A DNA stretch of 64,000 nt, from contig CAVYXA010000001.1 of NCBI GenBank assembly GCA_963772365.1, forward strand, positions 544,001-608,000, read 5' to 3'. Shown here in pieces: positions 12,920-37,400 of this stretch (positions are counted from its first letter, which is position 1; each line of letters opens with the position of its first letter). The stretch is from an uncultured Verrucomicrobiae bacterium. GTDB taxonomy: Bacteria; Verrucomicrobiota; Verrucomicrobiia; Chthoniobacterales; UBA10450. The notes under the pieces were generated by a model, which had not been told where the DNA came from, made no database searches, and saw only the letters and a list, made by a program, of their open reading frames with translations. The translations under genes and the position numbers were made by a program.

Positions 12920-13147
12920 CTGAAATCACTCTCCGCCGATCACCGCACCGTGCGTTTCAGTTTTTCAGAAGAGACCCAAAGAAACACTCACCTAATTAGG
13001 AAAGCAGGAATGCAGGAGATTTCATTCATACGGTCGGATGCATGCATCCCTTCCTGTTTTCCGCCCTTCCTGATTCATTTCTAGCTGCTTTCGAATTCAT
13101 TCCTTAACGCTCGCGAAACATTTCGGAGTAGCCTCGGCGAAGGCTGG

Positions 13148-13468
13148 TCACTTCTTGGCCAGGCCGTCGCGCCAGGCCATCACTTCCAGTTCGCCGCGGA
13201 CCGCGTCCTCTATCGGAATTACTGGTCGCGCTTCGAATTTGAACGCCGGCAACATCGTGGAGAATTTGTGAATCTCCAATGGATCGTCGCAATCCAACAA
13301 CATATAGCCGCCCCAATCGCCCACGCGGATCACGAACATCTCGATCTTAAAATTGGCCGGCGCTTTCCATTGCCGAAACACCTCCAGTATGCGTTTCTGC
13401 GCATTCTCATACTCTATCGGCGAACCTTGCGAGCGCTCCCACCAGCTGATCATGTACTTCATCGACAT
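13148..13468 (-). CDS. DUF3303-like small protein
   Basis: KYMISW.ER.GS..EYE.AQKRIL..F..W pattern; RBS-like AAAAGG upstream. Confidence 0.7.
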   Translation of the reverse strand: MSMKYMISWWERSQGSPIEYENAQKRILEVFRQWKAPANFKIEMFVIRVGDWGGYMLLDCDDPLEIHKFSTMLPAFKFEARPVIPIEDAVRGELEVMAWRDGLAKK

Positions 13469-20242: not shown

Positions 20243-23200
20243 ATGGCAGGTAGCACCGATTCGCCCGAAGCACCCACTGACGTAGCGCAGAGCCGCCTCA
20301 CGCAGGTCTTCAAATTTCTGAAAGCGCTAAACGAGCTCAGGAACCCGGTGCCCCGTGATTTGTCCGCCTATTCTCAAATACTCTGGCTTGATAAATGGCC
20401 GACGCATCCAACGATCGTGATTCAACGCGGCGACCGCGAAGATAATGAAGAGGAGACAGACGTCGATGCTGAGATGGAACCGACAATCCGCGTTCAACGG
20501 GCACGACTCACGGCCTGCCCCAACCCGCCGACGCTCCTTGACGGCTGGCTCAACCCAACGTGGCAATCCATCGATGCTGAAGTTGAAGTGCTTCACTCCC
20601 GCAACTTCGTAAACAAGGAAAAGGAAACGGTCACAATTCAGTTCGTCGATGAGGCCGCGCGCGTCGATGCGTTGAACGTTTGGAAAGCTACGCGAGAAAA
20701 ATGGGCGGCAGCAGAGCGACCGACGATTGAGGCGCGACAGCTGTTCGAACGGATTCACGCCTTGTGGACGACGATACAACGCGAAGGTGATCGCGTGGAG
20801 CTCGTCCTTGCTGAGGGGATACTGGAAGAGGCGACACAACTAATTCGGCATCCCATTTTATTGCAGCGCATCAATTTTGAATTTGATCCCGCAGTACCGG
20901 AATTCCGATTTTCGACTGGCACTGAAAACGTTGAATTGCATCGCGCGTTATTGCGCTTAGTCCCGACGATTGAAGGCCGAATGATCGCGCACTTCGACAA
21001 AGAACTTGAGAAACGCCCAGTCGAACCGCTTGGCGGCGAAAGTACAATCGGTTTTCTCCGCGCCGTTGTGCAGGGTCTTTTTACTGATGGCGAGTTTATC
21101 GAGAAAACGCCGGGCATTATCGGTAATCATCCGACCATCCATCGCGAAGCTGTGATATTCCTCCGCCCGCGAACTGCCGGACTAAGTACCACGGTGGATT
21201 CGATTATTGAGGACTTGGAAGGCGAAGTGACGATCCCGGAAGGATTGTCTACGATTGTGGGAGTCGAGACGGATGCTACTGGGGCTTCGCAAGATGACGG
21301 AAGGGATGACGAAAAGCCTGCAACTACACCAACGGCAGAACCGGACATTCTTTTCAGTAAGCCTGCGAACTCCGAGCAGTACGAGATTGCCGCTCGACTA
21401 GCGAAAAACAGAGCGGTGCTCGTGCAAGGCCCGCCGGGAACCGGAAAAACACATACGATCGCGAACTTACTTGGGTATTTGCTGGCCCAGGGAAAAACAG
21501 TGCTGGTGACTGCCCACACGACAAAAGCATTGAGAGTATTGCGGCAACAAGTCGATACAGCGCTTCAACCGCTTTGCCTGAGCGTTCTGGGAAGAGACTC
21601 CGAAAGCCAAAGTCAGATGAAAGAGTCCGCGCAAGAAATTGCGAATCGGCTTTCTAGTTCGAACGCCGCGACACTGCGCAAACAAGCAGCGCTTCTGCGA
21701 GAGAAAAGGCGCAAACTGCTTGATACATCGGCGGAATTGCGACGCCGACTTCGCGACGCGCGATTCAGTGAAGTCGAAGAAATCGTGGTTGCTGGAGAAG
21801 GTTTAAGTCCGATCGACGTTGCAAAGCGAGTGAAAGCAGATGAAGACCGCGACGGTTGGATTCCCGGACCGCTTGAAACTGGTCTCTGTCCACTCACCGA
21901 GTCGGAAGTCCGTCAGATGTACGCTACTCACGCCGTGCTAGCAATTTCCGACGAACGACAAATCGCTGTTAAGCAGCCGTTGCTCGCCCAGTTAGTGTCA
22001 CCTGCGGATTTCCGATTGCTCGCAAATGAACGAGCCGGCACGACCTCGCGCGCGAAATTGCATCGGCGCGAATTTTGGAACGACACGGCCATAGCTGGAT
22101 GTACGGCGAAGCAACTCCAAGAACTACATCAGCGTGTTTGCGCAGCTGCCGCAGTTCTGACCGAGAAAGAAGACTGGCTGCGCGAAGTACTATTCGCTGG
22201 ATGGACTGGAGGCGATCACCGCGAAGTCTGGAATGATCTATTAAGTTCCATTGATTCACTTGGAGTCGAAGCGGCTACCGCCATGCGCCTACAAAAGGCG
22301 CACGGACCGGAGCTCCCCGGCGACCGACCAGTCGAGCCTGTGGCAGCGACACTCGATGAGATTATTCATCATCTGGAGACCGGACATTCTCTTGGATTGA
22401 TGACAAAACTTCGTCATCGAAACTGGCATGAACTCATCGAGCTTTGTCGGGTTGAGGGTCACGTGCCCCAAACGATCGATGAATTTCGCGCGTTGCGTGC
22501 GATTGCGCGGTTACAAGAGGGCCGCACGCGTTTCGGAGGGCGTTGGCAGCGCACGGTCGAATCGTTAGGCGGTCCACGAGTAGAAGCGCTTGGGAATTCA
22601 CCGGAACGTGCCGCCCAAGGTTATGCTGCGGAAATTCGGAACAGACTCGAATGGCGTACAACTAAGTGGGAAGCGCTGACAAACGAGTTGCGGGCTGCCT
22701 CCTTTCGATGGGACGATTGGCTCGCCACGCACCCGCCGGTAACAGGCGATCATGGCGAACTTGCTCGCGTGCAGCGCGCAGCTTCCGAAGGATTGGCTGA
22801 CATCGTCGAGGCGCAAGCAGCGTTAATTCGCCAAACAGAACTCGCGACGGCACTTCAATCGCAGCGCACGTATCTCGCCGGCTTTCCAGAAAGCGATGCG
22901 GCCTCAGTGTTGCTCACCGCGCAGGATGCATGGAACACTGAAGAGTACAGAAGCTGCGTGTCGCGAACTAGCGAGATTGGAGGGTCTGCACACTGCATAT
23001 GATATTCGTTCGGAATTGCTCGCAAAATCGGAACATGCAGCGCCCGCGTGGGCGCTCGCAGTTTTTCAGCGCGAGAAACCACACGATGCTCCAGAGCCGC
23101 CGGGCGATGTAGCCGCAGCGTGGAGGTGGCGTCAATGGTGTCAAGAACTCGAGCGGCGCGCGTCAGTTTCAATGACGGACTTGCAAGAGCGACTTGAGAA

Positions 23201-24821
23201 AACAGAGAAAGATTTGCGAGAGATCGCGGCGCAAATTATCGAACATGAGACTTGGGCTGCACAGTGTGAGCGTACCGGCCTTCAGGCAAAGCAAGCGCTC
23301 ATGGGTTTCGTTCAGACGATTCGAAAGATTGGAAAAGGAACTGGCAAGCGCGTTCCAGAACTTCTTCGTAAGGCTAGAGAACTTCTTGCCTCAGCCCGAC
23401 GCGCCGTTCCGGTTTGGATCATGCCGTTAAGCAGGGTTTATGAAAGCTTCGATCCTCGCGAAACAAAATTTGATGTCGTTATCATCGATGAAGCCAGTCA
23501 GAGCGATGTCACCGCATTAGCCGCTCTTTACTTGGGATGTGAACACGTTGTTGTCGGCGATAAAGAGCAGGTGACGCCAGATGCAATCGGTCAACGTGTA
23601 GATCAAGTGACCCGACTCATCGCCACTGATCTGCAGGGCGTTCCTAACAATCATTTGTACGATGGGCAAACTTCGATCTATGATCTCGCCGAAACTGCGT
23701 TCGGCGGTGTCGTTGCGTTACGCGAGCACTTCCGCTGCGTACCAGAGATCATTCAGTTCAGCAATCATCTCTCTTACAACAATGCGATTCGACCGCTGCG
23801 TGAGCCTTTCTCTTCGCCAGTTCGCCCAGCATTAATTCCCCATCGAGTTCAGGGCTTTCGAAATGAAGCGGGAAAAGCGAATGAAGTTGAAGCGGAGGAA
23901 ATAGCGTCGCTCGTTGTCGCCTGTCTCGTTGATCCGGACTATGAGCTTAACGATTTCGGTCAACCGACAACATTCGGTGTGATTTCACTTTTGGGAGAAG
24001 AGCAAGCGCTCCTCATAGAAAATATTCTCCGACGACATCTCACGCCCGACAAATTCGCGAGACATCGGCTTCTCTGCGGGAATGCAGCGCAGTTCCAAGG
24101 TGATGAACGCGACGTGATGTTTCTTTCGATGGTGGACGGCCCACCGGACGATGGACAGTTGCGGATGTTGGATGCCGGGCCAAAAGACTTATACAAGAAA
24201 CGCTACAACGTCGCGGTCAGCCGTGCTCGTAATCAACTTTGGGTCGTTCATTCGATTGACATGAACAGGCATTTAAAGAGCGGTGATTTGCGGCGGCGTT
24301 TACTCTCGCACGTTCACGATCCGGAAGCGCTGCTGAGAGAAATGGAAGTACAAGGCAATCGCGTCGATTCGCCGTTTGAGAAACAGATCATGCAACGCTT
24401 GGTCGCTGCTGGCTATCGGGTTCGCTCGCAGTGGCCTGTTGGCGCATATCGCATCGATTTGGTCGCGGAAGGCCTTAATAGAAAATTGGCGGTCGAATGC
24501 GACGGCGAGAAATGGCACACACCCGAGCAACTTCAGAATGATCTGGAACGCCAAGCTATTCTCGAACGGCTCGGATGGATTTTTGTTCGCGTGCGAGGCA
24601 GCATCTTCTTCCGCAACCCCGATGCGGCGATGGCTCCGGTTTTTGCAAAACTCGCCGATCTCGAAATCGAACCGTTAGGTCCGGCATCAGACTCCGAGCG
24701 AAGAGGTGACTCTCCTTTGGTCGAGCGAATCAGGCGAAACGCCGAAGCTCTGCGGACGCAGTGGCTCGCTGAAAAAGAATTGGACGTCGAGATCGGAGCA
24801 GAGGAATACGTTCCGTTTTGA
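20243..24821 (+). CDS. Large superfamily-1 (Upf1/DNA2-like) helicase with C-terminal Vsr/DUF559-like endonuclease; one apparent extra base at ~22949
   Basis: VQGPPGTGKT in 20243-23002; IIDEASQ, GDKEQ, EHFRC, FQGDERD, NVAVSRAR and DSPFE...RIDLV...VECDG..WH...LERLGW in 22896-24821. Confidence 0.88.
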
Positions 24822-24859: not shown

Positions 24860-24960
24860 TGGGTCAGTCAACATATCTTGACTGGCGAAGCCGATTGAAG
24901 CGAATGAAAAACCCGGCTTTGGATCTGCCCGATTCTGTCAAGATTTGTTGACTGACCCCC
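24860..24960. repeat. REPIN/MITE-like element with 22-bp terminal inverted repeats
   Basis: gggtcagtcaacatatcttgac ... gtcaagatttgttgactgaccc (one mismatch). Confidence 0.85.
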
Positions 24961-25025: not shown

Positions 25026-26123
25026 ATGAAAGACGAGCGTCCATTATATGAGACCGATCGGGATTCGGAGCCAGATCCCGACGAAACACCAATACGCGAT
25101 CGACGTTTGTTTACCCAGCCTTACGACCTTGTCGTTGAATCATTGATCGAGCAGATCGCCGCCAAAACTATGTTTCTGCGGCCATTATCTGAGCGACCGC
25201 AATTCCAACGGCGATATGTCTGGTCCAATCAGCTGGCTTCAAGACTGATCGAATCGATTCTACTAAATGTCCCAATCCCACCATGCTATTTGTCACAAAG
25301 CGAGGAATTCGAACTCGACGTTATCGATGGTCAACAGCGACTCTTCTCAATCTATCGATTTCTTGAAAATCAGCTAAAACTTACAGGGCTTGAAGTCTTA
25401 ACAGAATTCGCGGGATTGCGATTTTTCGAATTGCCCGACCGTGCTCAGCGGCGCATCAAAACACACACCCTCCGGTGCGTTCTCATCACAAATGAATCGC
25501 ATCCCGAGATCAAGTTTGACGTTTTTCAACGCCTGAACACAAATACTGTTCCTCTAAATGCCCAAGAGCTGCGCAATTGCATTTATCGCGGGACTCTGAA
25601 CTCCTTATTAAAAGAAGCCGTGGAATATGAGCCGTGGCTAAGAATCCTGAACCGCCGAAAGCCGGATAAGCGTATGCGGGATGAGGAGCTCGTCTTGCGA
25701 TTCTACGCGTTTCGATTGCATGGCCTTCAGTCTTATCGCACGCCGCAGAAACATTGGCTTAATGACACGGCTCGACAGGGCAAAAGCTATGGCGCAAAGC
25801 GGATCGCTGAACTTGGGGATCTTTGGCGGCACTCAATAGATGTGTCTCTTATCTGGTTTGACCCGAAAGACTGTTTTCGGCGAGGAGCAGGTCCAAAATC
25901 GAAAGCTATCAATCGTGCCCTATTCGATTTGATAATGCTACTTGCTGCGGACATGACTACCGTACGTGCCCGCAAGGTCCGCAACAAGCTTCGCACGGCA
26001 TATAGGTCGCTATTCGATGGCGATGAGTTCGTAGATTTGATCAGCAAATCTGTAGATCATACGAAACGGACCAAGCGACGATTTACGATTTGGAACCAGC
26101 AAGTCGTTAACAAACTTGGGTAA
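25026..26123 (+). CDS. DUF262 (ParB/Srx-fold, GmrS-like) protein
   Basis: FQRRYVW, IESILLNVPIP, IDGQQRL, FQRLN. Confidence 0.92.
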   Translation: MKDERPLYETDRDSEPDPDETPIRDRRLFTQPYDLVVESLIEQIAAKTMFLRPLSERPQFQRRYVWSNQLASRLIESILLNVPIPPCYLSQSEEFELDVIDGQQRLFSIYRFLENQLKLTGLEVLTEFAGLRFFELPDRAQRRIKTHTLRCVLITNESHPEIKFDVFQRLNTNTVPLNAQELRNCIYRGTLNSLLKEAVEYEPWLRILNRRKPDKRMRDEELVLRFYAFRLHGLQSYRTPQKHWLNDTARQGKSYGAKRIAELGDLWRHSIDVSLIWFDPKDCFRRGAGPKSKAINRALFDLIMLLAADMTTVRARKVRNKLRTAYRSLFDGDEFVDLISKSVDHTKRTKRRFTIWNQQVVNKLG

Positions 26124-26821
26124 TGCCACGCTATACCGTTGCGTATTCTTCCTTCCTGACCCGATTAGACGAGGTTCAGACTCTTCGCGGCCTCGCGGCG
26201 AAACAGGAGGAAGCCGACCCAATCGCACTTAGTGCGTCGATAAACGCGCTGTGTAGAGGGACGATCGTCCTTTTATCCAGCCACGTAGAGGGCTTCATCA
26301 AAGAATTGGGTGAATTGACACTCGAACGTGTTCACTTACGCGGCGTGGCGCGTGGCGCGATCGTTCCGCAATTCTTTTACCACTTGTCAAAAGACAAGCT
26401 GACTGAACTTCGGGATGCATCTCAACCAGATACAATCGCGACGCGACTGTTCGAGATTGTTCAACGAGACTTGGATCTATGGAATAAGGCTGGTCCGTTT
26501 CCCCGGGCGCTACCAGCCGAGATGTTCAACAGAGGCTTTGCAAATCCTGCATTCGTGAAAATCAAGACATACTTCAATCGATTTGGGTATGATACATTTA
26601 CGAACGACCTCGGGGCCGCGCTCGCCGCCAACTACCTCCCGACGACGAACATGATAAATCACGTTGTAGATCTTAGAAATAAGATCGCTCACGGCGATCC
26701 AACCGTCACGGAAACTCCAGCGGATTTAGGAGACATGATTCGCTTAGTTCGCACGTTTTGCCGAAGTACGGACGACGTGTTTGCGCGATGGTGTCGTGCA
26801 TCTCTTTGTTCAATCCGATAA
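26123..26821 (+). CDS. HEPN-domain protein (RiboL-PSP/MAE_28990-like), putative RNase
   Basis: SHVEGFIKE and RNKIAHG (Rx4H); translationally coupled to DUF262 via TAATG. Confidence 0.8.
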   Translation: MPRYTVAYSSFLTRLDEVQTLRGLAAKQEEADPIALSASINALCRGTIVLLSSHVEGFIKELGELTLERVHLRGVARGAIVPQFFYHLSKDKLTELRDASQPDTIATRLFEIVQRDLDLWNKAGPFPRALPAEMFNRGFANPAFVKIKTYFNRFGYDTFTNDLGAALAANYLPTTNMINHVVDLRNKIAHGDPTVTETPADLGDMIRLVRTFCRSTDDVFARWCRASLCSIR

Positions 26822-27158
26822 CCATTGCGTCGCTCCGGCGTGCAGCTGGCACGTTGTCGGTGCCGGCTCGTATTCTTTCTCGTGCTCCACGGGGACCGAA
26901 GCCCAATCCACTTATAATTTTCAGCTGAGGCGCGGGACGCCACGAGATCTAACATTGAGCCAAAATGATCGTTCACCTCGTCGACGGCCGCGTAATCCCG
27001 TAAAAGGCTTCGCCTCACGTGATCTCATCGTTCATACGCCGGCCTTCGCAAAGTTGGCGAGGCGGATGGACGCGCCGCGGCCGCTGGAGCGCATTAAAAA
27101 ACTGACAACGGAAAGCTGAAAGCGACGAATGACGATGCGCGATTAGCGCGAGAGTTTC

Positions 27159-27449
27159 TTATATTTGCGGTTCGCGGCGAGCGGAATGCCAGTAGTCCAT
27201 GACCTCGATCACTTGTTCCTTTCGCCGGAGACGATAGTAAATGTAATACGACTTGCACAGGAGCCGTCGAACATTGGCTCGCTTTCGGTATGGCGTTCCC
27301 ATGTCTGGAAACCTAGCCAAAGATTCAGTACGGTCCGCCAAGTAGTCGCCAAACCGAATGGCAGCGAGCGGATCGTCTTGCGCGATGAAGCGAACGATTT
27401 GTTCGAGTTCTCCGAGCGCTTGCGGAGCAAAAATTATTCTCCAGCCCAT
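27159..27449 (-). CDS. RelE/ParE family toxin
   Basis: WRIIFAPQALGELEQI..FIAQDDP.AA, L..FP.MG, YYIYYR, WHSAR. Confidence 0.9.
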   Translation of the reverse strand: MGWRIIFAPQALGELEQIVRFIAQDDPLAAIRFGDYLADRTESLARFPDMGTPYRKRANVRRLLCKSYYIYYRLRRKEQVIEVMDYWHSARREPQI

Positions 27450-27658
27450 TCGCGAATTTTCTCGCGAACGCGTTCGAGGGGGACGCCTTTGCCGGCATCC
27501 AGCTCGGCAGCAGCTTTATCGAGGCGGGCGAGCAAAGCCTTCTCTTCGGCTTCGGACATGATTGGTTCCTCTTGAGATTGAAGCCAGGCAGCGAGCGCCG
27601 ACTTCTCATTTGCCGGCAATTTGTCGATCGCTTTCTGGATCTCGGTGATCGTGCTCAT
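27434..27658 (-). CDS. Addiction-module antitoxin
   Basis: MSTITEIQKAIDKLP..EK...GKGVPLERV; overlaps the toxin start. Confidence 0.8.
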   Translation of the reverse strand: MSTITEIQKAIDKLPANEKSALAAWLQSQEEPIMSEAEEKALLARLDKAAAELDAGKGVPLERVREKIREWAGE

Positions 27659-27834
27659 GAAATCGGATTCGCCAGTTCGCGATTCGCCTGCAAAACCATC
27701 TCGACCGCTTCCTTCAAGTTTGCGCGCGCTTCCTCCAGCGTTGCGCCCTGCGTATTCGCACCGGGCAGCTCTTCCACGAATGCGGCGTAGCCTTCGGGAA
27801 ATTTTCGGAAGACCGCAGTCAGCTTGATTTCCAT
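27655..27834 (-). CDS. hicB: HicB-family antitoxin, orphan and possibly C-terminally truncated
   Basis: GYAAFVEELPGANTQGATLEEARANLKEAV; no hicA recognised nearby. Confidence 0.8.
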   Translation of the reverse strand: MEIKLTAVFRKFPEGYAAFVEELPGANTQGATLEEARANLKEAVEMVLQANRELANPIS

Positions 27835-28023
27835 GTCGATCTTGTAGCACAAAACACGAGTGCTGGACAGCTACGTCTTCGAATACAGCTTCGCTCCGGC
27901 TTTGAGGGCGCGGCCATAAAATCTAACATTGACCCAAGATGATCGTTCACCTCGTCGACGGCCGCGTAAAGTGCTTCGCTCCACCCGGCTGTCGCGGCGT
28001 TTTCATCCTCGAGCGGACTCGCG

Positions 28024-28266
28024 TTATCCGAACAGCGTTTGCACCTTCCTCAAAACTTCAGCGAGCTTTGTTCCCTTCACCTTTCCGACTGAATACAGAA
28101 TCACGTTTTGCTCAACCGTGAAGAGCCGTTGGGGACGGATAAAGCTCGCTTGATGGAGCTTTCCACGTTCGAAGTCGGGAGCGTCCAATGCGACTGAGGA
28201 TTCATCCGATCTGGCGCGGCTTGTGATCTGGCAAAGAATCACATCGTCGCCCGGAAGATCGACCAC
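28024..28266 (-). pseudogene. mazF: MazF/PemK toxin, 5'-truncated
   Basis: DDVILCQITS, SFIRPQRLFT present; the N-terminal PFP...KRRPA segment is missing and the break coincides with the hairpin repeat at 28264. Confidence 0.8.
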
Positions 28267-28486
28267 GTAAAAGGCTTCGGCTCACGTGGTCAGCGCGCCA
28301 GGTACCTCGGCGTCGCCACCGACCACATGATCGAGTCGTTTCGCAATCGGCTTTGGGCAGACGACAAGACCGGCGCCGGCATCGAGCCCGCGTTGCTCGC
28401 GCAATTCCATCCGAGCTTAATCGAATTATAGCGAGTTTACCGAGTTATATCTTGAATTGGATATAATCGGGTATAAACAGATACAA

Positions 28487-29671
28487 ATGGATCCAATCAA
28501 GAATCCTTTCTCACCGGGTGCCGGCTCCCCGCCTCCCGAACTAGTTGGGCGAGATCCAATCCTCGAGCAGGCTCGAATTCTCTTGGGGCGCGTCAAAGAA
28601 AGACGTCCTGAGAAAAGCATGTTGCTCACCGGATTACGCGGCGTGGGCAAGACCGTTTTGCTGAACGAAATCGATCGAATAGCGAAGGCGAGTACGTATC
28701 GCACCATCGTCGTTGAAGCACACGAAGACAAACCACTGGGACCTCTTCTCGCGCCATATCTGAGAAGCCTTCTCTTTGAGTTGGATCGAGTCGCAGGTGC
28801 AAGCAATAAAGTAAAACGCGGCCTTCGAGTGCTCCGCAGTTTTTTGGGAGTGCTAAAAATTACTTACAATGACGTAACGATCGGTGTGGATGTCGATCCT
28901 GAAAAGGGATCGGCGGACAGTGGTGATTTGGAGATCGACCTACCGAATCTTCTTGTGGCGATCGCTGAAGCGGCAGAAGAGCGGAAGACTGCGATCGCCG
29001 TGCTAATCGACGAAATCCAATACTTCGGCCAAAAGGAACTTGGCGCATTGATTATGGCGATGCACCGAGTGCAACAGCAAAGACTCCCGTTGGTCTTGCT
29101 CGGAGCTGGACTCCCTATTCTCCCTGCTTTGGCGGGCGAAGCGAAGTCTTATGCCGAGCGGCTATTCAGTTTTCCGGATATCGGTGCGCTCTCCGAGCCT
29201 GATAGCGCAAAAGCGCTGCAAGAGCCGGCACGCGTAGCAGGCGTCTCGTTCGCCCAGCGGGCGTTGCGAGAGATATTTCGTTTAACGAACGGCTATCCTT
29301 ACTTTTTGCAGGAATGGGGATATCAATCATGGAATTTGGCGACGACGAGCCCGATTACGTCCCGAGTCGTTGAGAATGCAACTCGCGCAGTAATTCCGCG
29401 TCTTGACCAAAATTTTTTCCGGGTGCGATTCGATCGACTTACACCAAGTGAAAAGAATTTTCTTCGGGCAATGGCGCAACTAGGTTCGGGCCCACAGCGT
29501 ACTGGCGACATCGCTCAACTTTTGCGCGTGAAAGTTACAGGTCTCGGCCCGCTTCGAGCTAAGCTAATCAAAAAGGGTATGATCTACAGCCCCGCGCACG
29601 GCGATCTGGCATTTACTGTTCCGTTGTTCAACGAATTTATGATCCGTGCGATACCGACATTCAAACCGTAG
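28487..29671 (+). CDS. AAA-family ATPase with C-terminal winged helix
   Basis: NPFSPGAG..PPELVGR, GLRGVGKT, IDEIQ, GYPYFLQ, LIKKGMIY...FTVPLF. Confidence 0.88.
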   Translation: MDPIKNPFSPGAGSPPPELVGRDPILEQARILLGRVKERRPEKSMLLTGLRGVGKTVLLNEIDRIAKASTYRTIVVEAHEDKPLGPLLAPYLRSLLFELDRVAGASNKVKRGLRVLRSFLGVLKITYNDVTIGVDVDPEKGSADSGDLEIDLPNLLVAIAEAAEERKTAIAVLIDEIQYFGQKELGALIMAMHRVQQQRLPLVLLGAGLPILPALAGEAKSYAERLFSFPDIGALSEPDSAKALQEPARVAGVSFAQRALREIFRLTNGYPYFLQEWGYQSWNLATTSPITSRVVENATRAVIPRLDQNFFRVRFDRLTPSEKNFLRAMAQLGSGPQRTGDIAQLLRVKVTGLGPLRAKLIKKGMIYSPAHGDLAFTVPLFNEFMIRAIPTFKP

Positions 29672-30337
29672 GTATCGTCGTGGGGTGTCGCTTGCGTTAT
29701 CCGTGATGCTGCAAAGATTTATTCGACGATGTCGATCTTGCGCGCGCAGTGGCGACGCATGCGTTACGGGACGCAAAGCTCGTTGCCTTTCTCGACGAAC
29801 TCGCGCGACATTGGCCCAAAATGATCGTTCACCTCGTCGACGACCGCGTAAAAGGCTTCGCCTCGGTTTTGAAACTCGTTCGTTGCCCGCGCTTTGACTC
29901 ATGTGCTCCCGCCCATTTCGACCTCTCGGTTTGCCCATCTATGTTGCTCGCGTCCCCGCGGCTCCATTCTCGCTCCTACCCGCAATTCCCAATCGCAGTG
30001 CCCGGTTTCCTAGGTGCGCTCACTTTGCTCGGCACCTCCCACCGTAAGGTTCGCACCCTGTAAACGCCTCGTCGCTTTACCTTCTATGTCGCGCGTCCCA
30101 CGCGCTCCATTCGCAAGAACTCCTTGGGTTCCCGACCCAAGCTCTCGATTTCCCTAGGTCGACAAGCGACCCCCCATCGCAGAGTTCGCTCCCGCGAACG
30201 ATGGCCTCCAGAAATTTCCAATTCGGTGCCCGGCCTCCCTCCCGAGCACATCCCCGTCCAGCCGTAAAGTTGGCTCCCGAGCAACGCTCTAGACCGACTC
30301 AGTGCGAGCCGCACTGCCTCAGTATTTCAACAGTCTC

Positions 30338-30667
30338 CTAGGCCGGAGCGAGATCAGCCGCCACGTATCGGGTCTGATTGAGCACAGCGTCGGTGGCTTC
30401 GACCGGCACCTGCTTGATCAGTTCGCGGATGCTGAATTCCTGCTGCCCGACAACTTCAATCCCAATCACATTGTCCTTTTCGTCGAAATCGAGCATGACC
30501 AAGCCTTTCTCCGATTCGTGCTGTTCGGTGCGGGCAACTTTGCCGTCGCGAAGGCTGATGTACGCCGCGGTGGCTTCGGTATCGATCTCGACCACCGGAG
30601 GCTCGGTGATAGCAATGACGACGTCTTTACTATTCTTCCCAGTATCCGGTGATGATCCAGCACTCAT
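30338..30667 (-). CDS. DUF2283-domain protein (putative antitoxin)
   Basis: D.EATAAYISL, VMLDFDEKDNVIGIEV. Confidence 0.75.
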   Translation of the reverse strand: MSAGSSPDTGKNSKDVVIAITEPPVVEIDTEATAAYISLRDGKVARTEQHESEKGLVMLDFDEKDNVIGIEVVGQQEFSIRELIKQVPVEATDAVLNQTRYVAADLAPA

Positions 30668-30875
30668 TAGCAGATTGTCGATCTTAAGAAAAAAGTTCGC
30701 GATGGCGAGGGCGCCATCGCCAGCACGCGAGTCGCGTGCGCTCCCCGGAGAGGAAAATGCATTCGCGAGCGCGCTTTTCGATGTGCGCCGTGTCGTGAAA
30801 TTCATAAGCCATCGCACTCGTGATTACGCCTGCGAGCAAAGATCGGCGAGGTTATTTCCTTGAATTCTTCGCTAA

Positions 30876-31065
30876 CTACAGGTTTGCCCACGCGGCATTC
30901 TCTTCTGGGGAGTTCCAATCACGAGCCAGGACAGACTCTCTCAATTCTGCGCCGTTAAACGATTCATCGTCTCGGCTCTTCCTTAGACGCAGCGCAAAAT
31001 CGTAAACCTTGCGCTGCAGATTCTCAGGCAAGTTGGCGATTTCTTTCTCGATCAATTGTGCTCAC
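30876..31065 (-). pseudogene. DUF2281-like antitoxin of the type paired with MazF; start region disrupted
   Basis: Manual translation LIEKEIANLPENLQRKVYDFA...ESVLARDWNSPEENAAWANL* (31055-30876); the GTG at 31065 is out of frame. Confidence 0.7.
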
Positions 31066-31221
31066 CGTGGGACATTATCTCACAACCAGGTCTTGGCGTA
31101 AACTTCCCGCGTAAAAGGCTTCGCCTCACGCGGCTCCGATCGTGGTGCGGCGACGCTCTCCAACAGCCACGTGAGCCAACGCTCTTACGTGGCCTGCGAA
31201 GCGCAAAAATCCCGGGTGCTA

Positions 31222-34475: not shown

Positions 34476-37400
34476 ATGCCCTCGTTAAACAAAGAAACCA
34501 AGCTTCGCCTGCTCCGGTTGATTCTGGAAAGTCGTCATGCGGACTTGCGTGAGCAAAATCTGATCCGCCAGGGCAAAGGACACTTTCATGTTTCCGGAAT
34601 GGGGCATGAAGCGCTCGCGGCGGTGTCGATTCAAATGGAGCCGGACGATTACATCGTTTCGTATTATCGCGATCGTGGCCTGGTGCTTGGCCGGGGAATG
34701 ACCACCCGCGAGCTCGGTCTCGAATATTTCGCCAAACGAAACACCGGCAGTCACGGCCGGCAGATGCCGTCGCATTACAGCAATCGCAAATTAAACATCT
34801 GGAGTGTGCCGACTCCGACCGGCTCGCAGCTTCTTCCCGCGTGCGGCATGGCCTGGGGAATTCAGCTCGATGGCAAAAAAAATCTGGTCGTGACGACGGT
34901 CGGTGATGCGGCGACGCGCCAGGGCGATTTTTTTGAGGCGATCTGTTTCGCGAAAGAGAAAAAGCTCCCGATGCTTTTCCTTGTCGAAGACAACGCCTAC
35001 GGCATCAGCATGCCGACGCGGAAAAACAATCCGCTCGCACTAAATATTCTCGAATCGGACCACTGGCGCAGGATCAACGGCAATGATGTCCAGCAAGTGT
35101 ATGAGGCAACCGCAGAGGGGTTCGAAAAAATTCGCGATGGAAATGGGCCGTTCTTTTTCTGGATCAAAATGGAGCGGCTCTCCAGTCACACCAGCTCGGA
35201 CGATCATAAGCTGTATCGCAGCGCCGAGGAGATCGACTCGCTCTTGAAGTTCGATCCCCTCACCTGTTGGCGGAATGAGCTCACGAAGGAAGGCGCGATC
35301 ACGGCGGATGAATTCGCGAAGATCGACAATGAAATCAAAGAACGGGTTCGCCAAGAATACAGCGATGCTGAGAAAGCGGAAGATCCGTCGGCCAAGGAAT
35401 TGTTTGATGAAGTGATGCAGCCGCGGTCGTCCGCCTTCGCCAAGGCTACGGCGGACAAGCCGCCCGCGGCCACAGAGGTTTTGCCGCCGGGGAAATATCG
35501 AATTGGCGACACAGTCAACATGACTCTGCGAGCGGGACTGAAAGAAGATTCGGGCCGGATCATTTTCGGCGAAGATGTCGAAGACCCGAAAGGCGGCGTG
35601 TTTCGGCTGACCCAGAAACTTTCCACCGAATTTCCGAAACAGGTTTTCAATTCGCCGCTGGCTGAGTCGACAATCCTCGGGGTGGCCTGCGGCCTTGCCG
35701 CATATGGCAAGCGGCCTGTGTTCGAAGTGCAATTCATTGATTTTATTTATCCGGGATTCAATCAATTGGTCACGAACATCTCGAACTTGCGCTGGCGATC
35801 CCTCGGAAATTGGAAATGTCCGGCAGTCATTTACGCGCCTTACGGTGCGTATTTGCCGGGCGGAAGTTTATGGCATAGCCAGGCTAACGAATCAGCATTC
35901 GCGCATTATCCGGGGCTCTCGGTCGTGATCCCAAGTACGCCGGAAGACGCGGCTGGATTGCTCTGGACAGCAATGCACAGCGAAGATCCTGTCATTTTTT
36001 TGATCCCAAAACATATGCTCTGGGCTGAGCGCGAATCGAAAGAGCCGGTGCGAGCCATACCCTTCGGAGAAGCACGAAAATTCCGCGACGGGTCTGATGT
36101 GACGTTGATCGCGTGGGGGAACACGGTCGAGAAATCTCTCGAGGCTTTGGCGAAAATCGAGAACGAAACCAGCGTCGAGCTGATCGACTTGCGTTCCATC
36201 GTCCCATGGGACAAAAATGCGATTGAAAAATCTGTGCGCAAAACCGGGCGCATCGTCGTCGTTCAGGAAGACACGGAGAATTGCAGTGTCGGTCAGATGA
36301 TCATTTCTCACCTGTCGAGCAATCCCGAATTGTGGAGCGCGATGGTCAGCCCACCAATTTTGGTGAGCAAAGGCAATGTGATGATTGGTTATAATCCGAT
36401 CTACGAATATGCAGCATTGCCCGATGTGGAACGGATCCTCAACGCGATCCGGCAATCGGTTGCAACAAAGGAAAAACGCGCTGCAGCCGTAGGCTTTGAC
36501 CACAGCCGGGCTGAACCAGTGGCCGATTCGAAGAAGCCGAGGTCAACGCCCTCGGCTACAAACGTCCAACCGATCGTGGTCCCGATCATGGGCGAAGGAA
36601 TTCGTAATGCGAAAATAGTTTCGTTGCTGAAGAAGCCGGGCGACCCGATCGCGCTGGATGACGATTTATGCGAAGTCGAAACCGACAAGGCGGTCTATCC
36701 GATCCAATCATCGTTCGTCGGTACGATGGGCGAATGGAAAACAAAAGTTGGCGAGACGGTCGAGATCGGTCAGGAACTCGGGACAATTTTAATGGACGCT
36801 GCAGATGCGGGCGTCGAGCGCGGCCGGATCGAATCCGCCGTTGAAATACAAAAGCCGGGGTCAAGGCCCTCGGCTGCAACCATTGAGCCGGCGCTGTCAC
36901 CAACGGTTACGCGCAAGCTTTCAGACGTGATTCCGGCAAATCTGCAAATTGATGTTCGTTGGGACGCGATCCGAAAGGCGCGCGAGGCAGCGAAGAAGAA
37001 AAACGGCCAGGATGCACCGACCCCGAGTGTCATGATTGCGTGGGCAGTCGTGAGGGCGATGGAGAAGCATGCTCCGTTTCGCCGGTTGATCCTTGAAGAC
37101 GATCGCATTGTTGAAAATGAGAACTTTGATCTCGGTATCGCTGTCGCGCTGGAGGACGATCGGCTCGCGACGGCGGTGATTGTCGAGGCCAACAAGAAGA
37201 GCTGGCCCGAGTTCGTGAAGATTTACGATGAAACAGTGAAGGCCACGCGCCGCGGGCGAGTCGATGCCATGAATGCGCCGGTCGTGATTACCAGCCTAGG
37301 CGCTTTTGGAGTAAAAGTCGGAGCACCAATTGTCGTGCCGCCTTCGGTGGGAACGCTGTTCGTCGGCACGGCCCATCGCGAAATCGTTTCAAACGGCAAA

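Follow-up and report, generated by a model that had tools for sequence, protein, structure and literature searches.

How can toxin-antitoxin (TA) genes accumulate around copies of a hairpin repeat at a locus with no integrase gene? This question is raised by the region at 26.9-31.25 kb of the 64,000-nucleotide stretch of DNA analysed here (hereafter, the window), which comes from an uncultured Verrucomicrobiae bacterium of the order Chthoniobacterales. The original prediction took this region for an integron-like array of cassettes moved at the hairpin by an HUH or tyrosine enzyme acting in trans. Comparison with relatives points to a different answer. There, the hairpin forms the inverted ends of a nuclease unit with a single GIY-YIG gene, and the region can be interpreted, with a confidence that we would put halfway between doubt and certainty, as a scar field of this ~380-bp hairpin-ended element in a shattered exonuclease gene, built by repeated import of DNA, nicking by the nuclease and anchoring by homology. 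The genome carrying the window (3.35 Mb, assembly 90% complete) is denoted G000, other genomes are denoted by G and loci by L numbers; the genome tallies take in a few unpublished genomes as rows, and no claim is based on their sequence.

The hairpin and the GIY-YIG element

All six hairpin copies described originally are present, five on the plus strand (starting at 26996, 27962, 28263, 29844 and 31107) and one on the minus strand (31167-31192). The copies at 28263 (z -3.7), 31107 (z -2.6/-3.5) and 31167 (z -4.8/-5.3) fold well, those at 26996 (z -1.0) and 27962 (z -0.3) are decayed, and the one at 29844 stops after 21 nt. The compensatory stem change reported between copies is genuine and is also kept across relatives: among 257 full-length copies, stem pair 3/25 is G-C in 229, A-T in 15, G-T in 7 and A-C in 2, and pair 11/19 is G-C in 231 and A-T in 19, kin genomes and copies being non-independent both in these counts and in those of hairpin and nuclease co-occurrence. 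A gapless scan of the genome with up to four mismatches, which misses the truncated copy at 29844, identified seven copies (0-1 in the reversed-sequence control), five in the region and two elsewhere. With only two outside copies, the hairpin is not a common genome-wide repetitive extragenic palindrome (REP), the case that the original prediction had named as speaking against it. The outside copies are located at the ends of a peptidase T-like gene and an M28-peptidase-like gene, as we presume these genes to be, and the latter copy is followed by a decayed GIY-YIG gene. In the family, the hairpin is found with at most one mismatch in 95 of 251 genomes (none in the reversed control), at a low copy number of 1-11 per genome; window DNA used as the query matches 18 of 36 family genomes and none of 24 genomes from other families.

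In relatives, the hairpins enclose a small GIY-YIG gene instead of a gene for the HUH or tyrosine recombinase that had been envisaged. The unit of ~380 bp (median 382 bp among 57 complete units) consists of one gene for a ~90-residue GIY-YIG nuclease (PF01541, 54 bits) with the hairpin as its inverted ends, that is, with terminal inverted repeats of the kind by which insertion sequences and MITEs (miniature transposable elements with inverted repeats) are recognized. The GIY-YIG gene starts 21-25 nt 3' of the hairpin in 56 of 277 distinct copies, compared to 3 and 0 in two controls; at its other end, the unit terminates in an inverted copy, which is often part of a doublet of the type seen at 31107-31193. 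Among 41 GIY-YIG genes (the part of 71 matches that falls in 40 fetched loci), the left end accompanies 32, and the inverted right end likewise 32; both ends are present in 24 and at least one in 40, against none in 500 controls. The hairpin is present in 48 of 61 nuclease-bearing family genomes and in 47 of the 190 others. Residues Y5, Y16, R26, H30 and E62 are invariant in 74 proteins and are putatively catalytic, the roles being those that we take to be typical of the family; the nearest solved structures are UPF0213/SLX1-like. Exact matches to the hairpin comprise 127 loci (124 metagenomic and 3 viral, 44 of them with short flanks), of which 36 contain the nuclease, 30 the exonuclease and 11 a tRNA gene; on viral contigs, these three exact matches are the only ones and none matches the query set. 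Close homologues of the nuclease in two other families have related hairpin ends and lie within integrase genes, and most other distant homologues are located behind tRNA genes with other hairpins. G000 itself contains only a decayed cognate nuclease gene, its intact GIY-YIG genes being 35-48% identical to the query and associated with different hairpins, so that the window has to be considered a fossil.

Several other arrangements of GIY-YIG genes were observed. In many genomes, the element replaces the middle of integron-integrase genes (L177, L185, L188, L307, L319, L324, L335 and L338). Tandem GIY-YIG genes are found behind tRNA genes in G000 (C1:376966-379100 and C6:180-620): five near-identical units of ~321 bp follow a single tRNA gene, each ending in a hairpin and a copy of the tRNA 3' half, and single units are present at two other tRNA genes.

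The composite repeat is the start of an exonuclease gene

The ~55-bp composite repeat noticed originally is real. In it, the first 8 codons of a gene for a 5'-3' exonuclease, preceded by their upstream region, are joined to the 27-bp hairpin, and that the longer repeat is a gene start had been overlooked. The same applies to exonuclease pieces at 27036-27119 and 28290-28413, a thiC tail at 29764-29806 and a mazF start at 30867-30886. The intact gene encodes 274 residues (PF02739 and PF01367) and is whole in several relatives but fragmented in the window, where three starts, a piece with codons ~49-86 that follows the hairpin at 28263, and the final ~27 codons are recognizable; no intact copy was detected in the G000 assembly. 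A second island (C1:201.6-201.8 kb) contains a further exonuclease fragment together with a hicB piece, and no hairpin is present there. Of 27 Verrucomicrobia loci, 16 have the hairpin close to the exonuclease gene, as against none of 53 loci from other phyla. A gene that we take to be thiC converges on the exonuclease gene in seven of the 27 loci, and an eighth has a thiC piece upstream. Elsewhere in G000 (C1:710041-710727), a long displaced thiC 3' portion follows the intact gene at a distance of 4 kb on its downstream side, and TA-like cargo fills the interval. The ATCTAAC boxes at 26946 and 27920 were considered as parts of attC sites and rejected; they belong to the exonuclease upstream region and are unconserved in relatives.

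In some relatives (L010, L015, L014 and L004), exonucleases that are otherwise of full length include the hairpin as an in-frame, translated insert (R-V-K-G-x-A-S-R-G) at codons ~23, 45 and 48, which recalls the Rickettsia palindromic elements. Stacks of the hairpin with exonuclease starts of different alleles, resembling CRISPR in appearance, are present in L004 (G001 C6:1228080-1228500), L117 and L012; in several of these stacks, the exonuclease open reading frame is joined to the GIY-YIG leader instead of the nuclease.

Junctions, alleles and nuclease lineages

Host DNA is always joined to the element at the first (5') base of the hairpin, and the 5' flank is unconserved except for one C. 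Within the exonuclease gene, there are 13 positions of left-end and six of right-end junctions, and depending on the pair of ends, a few to ~25 bases overlap or up to ~700 are deleted; the two ends of the element join independently at many positions of the same gene. The duplications around complete units reach at least 12 nt in only 12 of 57, with differing lengths, other units deleting up to ~700 nt.

The stacked gene starts seen in relatives are different functional alleles. In 17 pairs of an exonuclease fragment and the downstream gene, chosen by DNA identity alone and including one spurious pair, the share of differing sites is 50% for the third, 9.5% for the first and 3.2% for the second codon position. 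Such a bias means that each start had evolved under protein selection in a lineage of its own before the two were brought together; given that decay after duplication would strike all codon positions alike, the stacked starts are alleles imported from elsewhere and not target duplications. The same test applied to the peptidase target yielded no usable pairs.

The phylogenetic tree of the nuclease, built on a short alignment and with rough support, contains two clean clades defined by the host gene, those linked to tRNA-Gln (5 rows, support 99/96) and the M28-peptidase (5 rows, 98/82), and the host-gene label changes 21 times on it compared to 43 with shuffled labels; the integrase-linked nucleases account for 5 changes. 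Third-position divergence is lower for the GIY-YIG gene than for the aspartokinase gene, used as a core gene, in 12 of 15 genome pairs (0.10 vs 0.53 in one example), the latter gene having been obtained from only 6 of 12 genomes. Thus, nuclease lineages appear to keep to particular host genes and yet to cross genera, a pattern that is new here. The clustering by host gene, the closeness across genera and the differences between alleles, taken together, fit the import of donor DNA that has the hairpin as its start and the neighbouring gene as its anchor.

Organization of the mosaic

The region starts with Block A (26926-26988, plus strand), which comprises the exonuclease upstream region and codons 1-8 (ATG at 26965) and is cut at the commonest codon-8 junction. 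A partial hairpin, the decayed copy at 26996-27022 and a short tail follow (26989-27035, plus); the tail is similar to what comes after the inner hairpin in full elements. Then comes the 3' end of the exonuclease gene, from codon ~249 to the stop (27036-27119, plus), codons 9-248 being absent. In G019 and G099, the element replaces the middle of the exonuclease gene; Block A is like these loci, with an apparent further deletion that removed the nuclease and the middle of the gene. Next come, on the minus strand, a ParE/RelE toxin gene (27159-27449) with a putative antitoxin gene (27434-27658), together spanning 27159-27658, with homologues upstream of the exonuclease gene in G020 and G025, and a short gene of the HicB-like/UPF0150 family (27655-27882) that has lost its downstream partner, presumably hicA-like as in relatives, at a hairpin-free junction near 27670. 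Block B (27883-27997, plus) consists of the exonuclease upstream region with codons 1-8 (ATG at 27939), the decayed hairpin 27962-27988 and 9 nt similar to the GIY-YIG leader; the same combination of hicB with an exonuclease start is found in L165, L028 and L123.

The 3' part of a mazF (PemK) gene (28024-28262, minus), with 88% DNA identity to the intact gene of G016, ends precisely at the hairpin copy at 28263, as originally reported. This hairpin (28263-28289) and the exonuclease codons ~49-86 behind it form a segment (28263-28413, plus) that corresponds to the in-frame codon-45 hairpin allele of L181, L194 and L270, joined to mazF via a shared 7-nt stretch just 5' of the hairpin. The AAA ATPase gene (AAA_16; 28487-29671, plus) is flanked, without hairpins, by the exonuclease fragment and a displaced thiC 3' tail (29764-29806, minus), and this block is ~97% identical in a soil metagenome contig; PADLOC reported nothing notable for the ATPase or the toxins. 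Block D (29807-29864, plus) contains exonuclease codons 1-8 (ATG at 29821) and the hairpin truncated after 21 nt. Blocks A, B and D all bear the widespread codon-8 junction. Block D is followed by a non-coding block (29865-30337) made of pieces of other dispersed repeats of G000 and by a DUF2283 gene (30338-30667, minus), with a homologue upstream of the exonuclease gene in G025. A different dispersed palindrome (30690-30750), with many copies across the genome, interrupts a small gene upstream of DUF2283; the repeat at 30692-30749 matches the flank of a REP-associated tyrosine transposase (RAYT) gene at C1:531.4 kb.

In the right part of the region (30867-31106, minus), the first ~7 codons of mazF are preserved together with a gene for a DUF2281-like antitoxin (30876-31055) and the promoter region of that gene, so that the mazF start survives, behind its antitoxin, 2.6 kb from the mazF 3' part. 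The intact DUF2281-mazF pair adjoins the exonuclease gene in G016 and G019. The last feature (31107-31193) is a doublet of a direct (31107-31133) and an inverted (31167-31192) hairpin, the right-end doublet of the GIY-YIG element. It cuts into the DUF2281 promoter region, which is uninterrupted in G016 and G019; in L040, the same doublet adjoins the hicB promoter. G001, a genome of the same genus, has the genes matching 12.9 kb and 31.26 kb next to each other, so that the region ends an ~18-kb island that is absent at this site in G001 and has the doublet at its right edge.

The calls of ParE, HicB-like/UPF0150, the PemK fragment, AAA_16 and DUF2283 among the cargo stand, whereas the matches of the antitoxin and DUF2281 are weak. 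All TA genes of the window have homologues directly beside the exonuclease gene in relatives, including hicB in L028, L040 and L123, antitoxin-parE in L014 and L002, and DUF2283 in L002. No hairpin is found within 1.5 kb of the aspartokinase-linked gene in any of 29 relatives, which indicates that the site is no ancestral array.

Other features of the window lie outside the region. A gene combining helicase and REase_MTES_1575 parts (20243-24821) is interrupted by a frameshift near 22.9-23.0 kb (best PADLOC match, PDC-S37). A GmrSD_N and HEPN gene pair occupies 25026-26821, and its first gene matches NsnA in PADLOC with 275 bits. A 22-nt inverted repeat whose arms are 54 nt apart (24861-24958) lies in the interval from the helicase to the GmrSD gene. 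A second hairpin family is represented at 35430-35455 and 13130-13150, with the in-frame translation A-F-A-K-A-T-A-D-K inside a 1026-residue dehydrogenase-like gene.

Origin of the mosaic

Under the interpretation that we favour, DNA of relatives would enter the cell repeatedly by natural transformation, and the nuclease would nick it, while it is coming in as a single strand, just 5' of the hairpin; this step is modelled on SsnA, which cuts single-stranded DNA a few bases upstream of its own hairpin (PMC11893778, in the sections drawn on here). The nicked end would then form an illegitimate joint at the hairpin while homology provides the anchor on the other side, for which homology-facilitated illegitimate recombination offers a precedent (as summarized in PMC6382021, citing de Vries and Wackernagel 2002). 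The TA genes would ride along as neighbours of the anchor gene and not as excisable cassettes, and some joints in the window are likely to be later microhomology deletions. More tentatively, and with doubts that outweigh our confidence, a selfish ~380-bp element that encodes neither transposase nor recombinase might spread between genera by programming the transformation machinery of the host, and defence islands might grow in this way with no integrase. By cutting donor single-stranded DNA at its own hairpin, the nuclease would turn the element into the end of an anchored, illegitimately joined fragment, and each round would displace an old gene start or tail and could drag in TA and defence neighbours.

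Several observations weigh against this interpretation. ComEC and DprA are encoded in G000 but also in 10 and 11, respectively, of 14 control genomes and so do not demonstrate competence. The activity of the nuclease on the hairpin is putative and the nick step draws on the likeness to SsnA, an analogy that crosses subfamilies, as indicated by the mismatch in the SRM motif and the UPF0213/SLX1-like nearest structures. The mazF joint is explained equally well by the 7-nt microhomology. Codons 1-7 do not differ among the three gene starts of the window, so that the allele test depends on relatives and not on the window locus; exonuclease-linked nucleases account for 13 label changes on the tree, which has 83 columns and unsettled bootstrap; and the aspartokinase sample is small. 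The hairpins, originally described as separators of the cargo, do mark several junctions, but none is present at the hicB/antitoxin (27670), exonuclease/AAA (28413), thiC tail (29807) and mazF start (30867) junctions, and displaced thiC tails separate TA cargo without a hairpin in G016 and G019. The hairpin therefore accounts for part of the mosaic, and the cargo does not consist of defined cassettes.

These hairpin-free joints, along with the lack of an intact cognate nuclease in G000, the microhomology at mazF and the hairpin-less exonuclease and hicB fragments at C1:201.6-201.8 kb, would be expected if the hairpins were passive scars of old insertions and the TA mosaic resulted from general homologous and microhomologous exchange in an island beside thiC and the exonuclease gene, with no role of the nuclease in the gain of cargo. 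This scenario seems to us unlikely, though not strongly so, because the 5' base of the hairpin is where joints fall at 19 different positions in a single gene, the TA promoters that the doublet has acquired on its left side differ between the window and L040, and the right edge of the island is the end of the element. A minimal transposon that inserts itself via its inverted ends, hops locally and causes adjacent deletions and duplications, with later homologous exchange of the neighbour gene making the duplicates differ, would account for the inverted ends, the narrow size range, the several unrelated target genes, the ends nested within the element's own gene start (L117, L006 and L130) and the near-perfect 22-24 bp duplications at tRNA-Gln, which ordinary insertion would likewise produce and which add to the points against donor-DNA import. 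We deem such a transposon unlikely, slightly more so than passive scars, given the rarity and variable length of the duplications, the heterologous exonuclease alleles, the low copy number and the fidelity of lineages to host genes; to our knowledge, no strand-joining activity has been described for the GIY-YIG domain.

The original reading as an integron- or REP/RAYT-like array, in which discrete cassettes are moved at the hairpin by a tyrosine or HUH enzyme in trans, retains its more general part, namely, a structured DNA site that marks several junctions of a rearrangement hotspot, with the enzyme outside the window. As a whole it is largely refuted and in our estimate very improbable. G000 does contain an integron-type integrase gene with an attC-like site and nine Y1 matches, and the hairpin co-varies, but the integrase gene, so called from similarity to L177, is distant (C1:1.249 Mb), and there is no PF00589 match in the window. 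A search for the attC pattern (RYYYAAC...GTTRRRY) identified the 123-bp site beside this integrase and none in 26.9-31.25 kb. None of the nine Y1-transposase loci of G000 (+-900 bp) shares the hairpin, neither the GTAG nor the CGTC tag is found on the hairpin consensus, and Rfam searches of 10 loci yielded only tRNAs and one chance match. Furthermore, the DUF2281-mazF and hicB modules end at differing places with differing neighbours in different genomes, so that cassettes with fixed ends are lacking, and the hairpin is a component of GIY-YIG units, which even interrupt integrase genes. That the mosaic is an artefact of metagenome assembly appears hardly credible. Raw reads of the source sample were not found (best share of a run, 0.09), so that a misassembly is not directly excluded, and no compared metagenome contig spans the stretch, these contigs coming from four soil runs of small share in which uncovered parts prove nothing. 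However, the repeat copies differ from one another (91% and 75%), the order of AAA gene, thiC tail and exonuclease start recurs in contigs of two other soil runs, L165 has the hicB-start haplotype and similar mosaics are found in other assemblies.

Comparison with known systems

The element shares individual features with several systems. Integrons likewise stack small accessory and TA genes at a structured site, but here there is no attC, adjacent intI or fixed cassette end. Free-standing GIY-YIG homing endonucleases form lineages that are tied to a host locus and spread between genomes via flanking homology, to which the present nucleases seem similar; unlike these, the element is not confined to a fixed point of insertion (its junctions fall at 19 positions in one gene), owns its hairpin ends and has no separate DNA-binding domain. 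In contrast to insertion sequences and MITEs, it generates no target duplication of fixed length, and the duplicates are different alleles. With REP/RAYT systems and REPINs, as portrayed in the main text of Di Nocera et al. 2013 (PMC3733652), it shares hairpins around one nuclease gene, gene-less doublets and in-frame insertions into proteins; the differences are a GIY-YIG instead of an HUH-Y1 partner, the absence of the GTAG/CGTC tag, the low copy number and the fidelity to host genes, and the term GIY does not occur in that main text. The one-sided homologous anchor with an illegitimate joint resembles homology-facilitated illegitimate recombination during transformation (as outlined in PMC6382021), with the difference that the joint is tied to one hairpin base, which suggests that an enzyme sets it.

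The window itself is a dead example, and its worth lies in pointing elsewhere. The findings link small GIY-YIG genes that stand alone and do not belong to the Ssn family, in soil Verrucomicrobia that are abundant, with a partner and a likely role, and offer a testable route for the movement of hairpin-flanked nuclease genes. If anchored import is true, it would explain why these genomes are littered with displaced gene starts and tails, represent an integrase-free way to build TA and defence islands, and provide a new pair of a single-stranded DNA nuclease and a 27-mer.

No description of the element was found in the full-text literature searched, mostly without subscription papers; the supplements of PMC11893778 may list such proteins. 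Within this literature, the closest described system is Ssn/NTS (SsnA, domain cd10448; Chenal et al. 2025, PMC11893778), known to us from the body of that report, in which a single-domain ~90-residue GIY-YIG protein is likewise flanked by oriented hairpin repeats. There, NTS-ssnA-NTS is likened to an insertion sequence, its movement being left as a hypothesis with no mechanism described in those sections, and SsnA cuts just upstream of the hairpin, where the joints of the present element fall. Unlike the system so described, the hairpin analysed here lacks the SRM motif (0 of 277 copies; the coded pattern finds 18 sites in the genome), there are 1-11 copies per genome and not hundreds, the nearest structures of the nuclease are UPF0213/SLX1-like, and the ends are inverted around the gene and located inside specific host genes whose duplicate alleles are imported. 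Thus, the feature in the window is real and is the fossil of an apparently undescribed variant of hairpin-plus-nuclease mobile DNA, to the description of which the exonuclease hotspot, the junction map and the allele test are added here.

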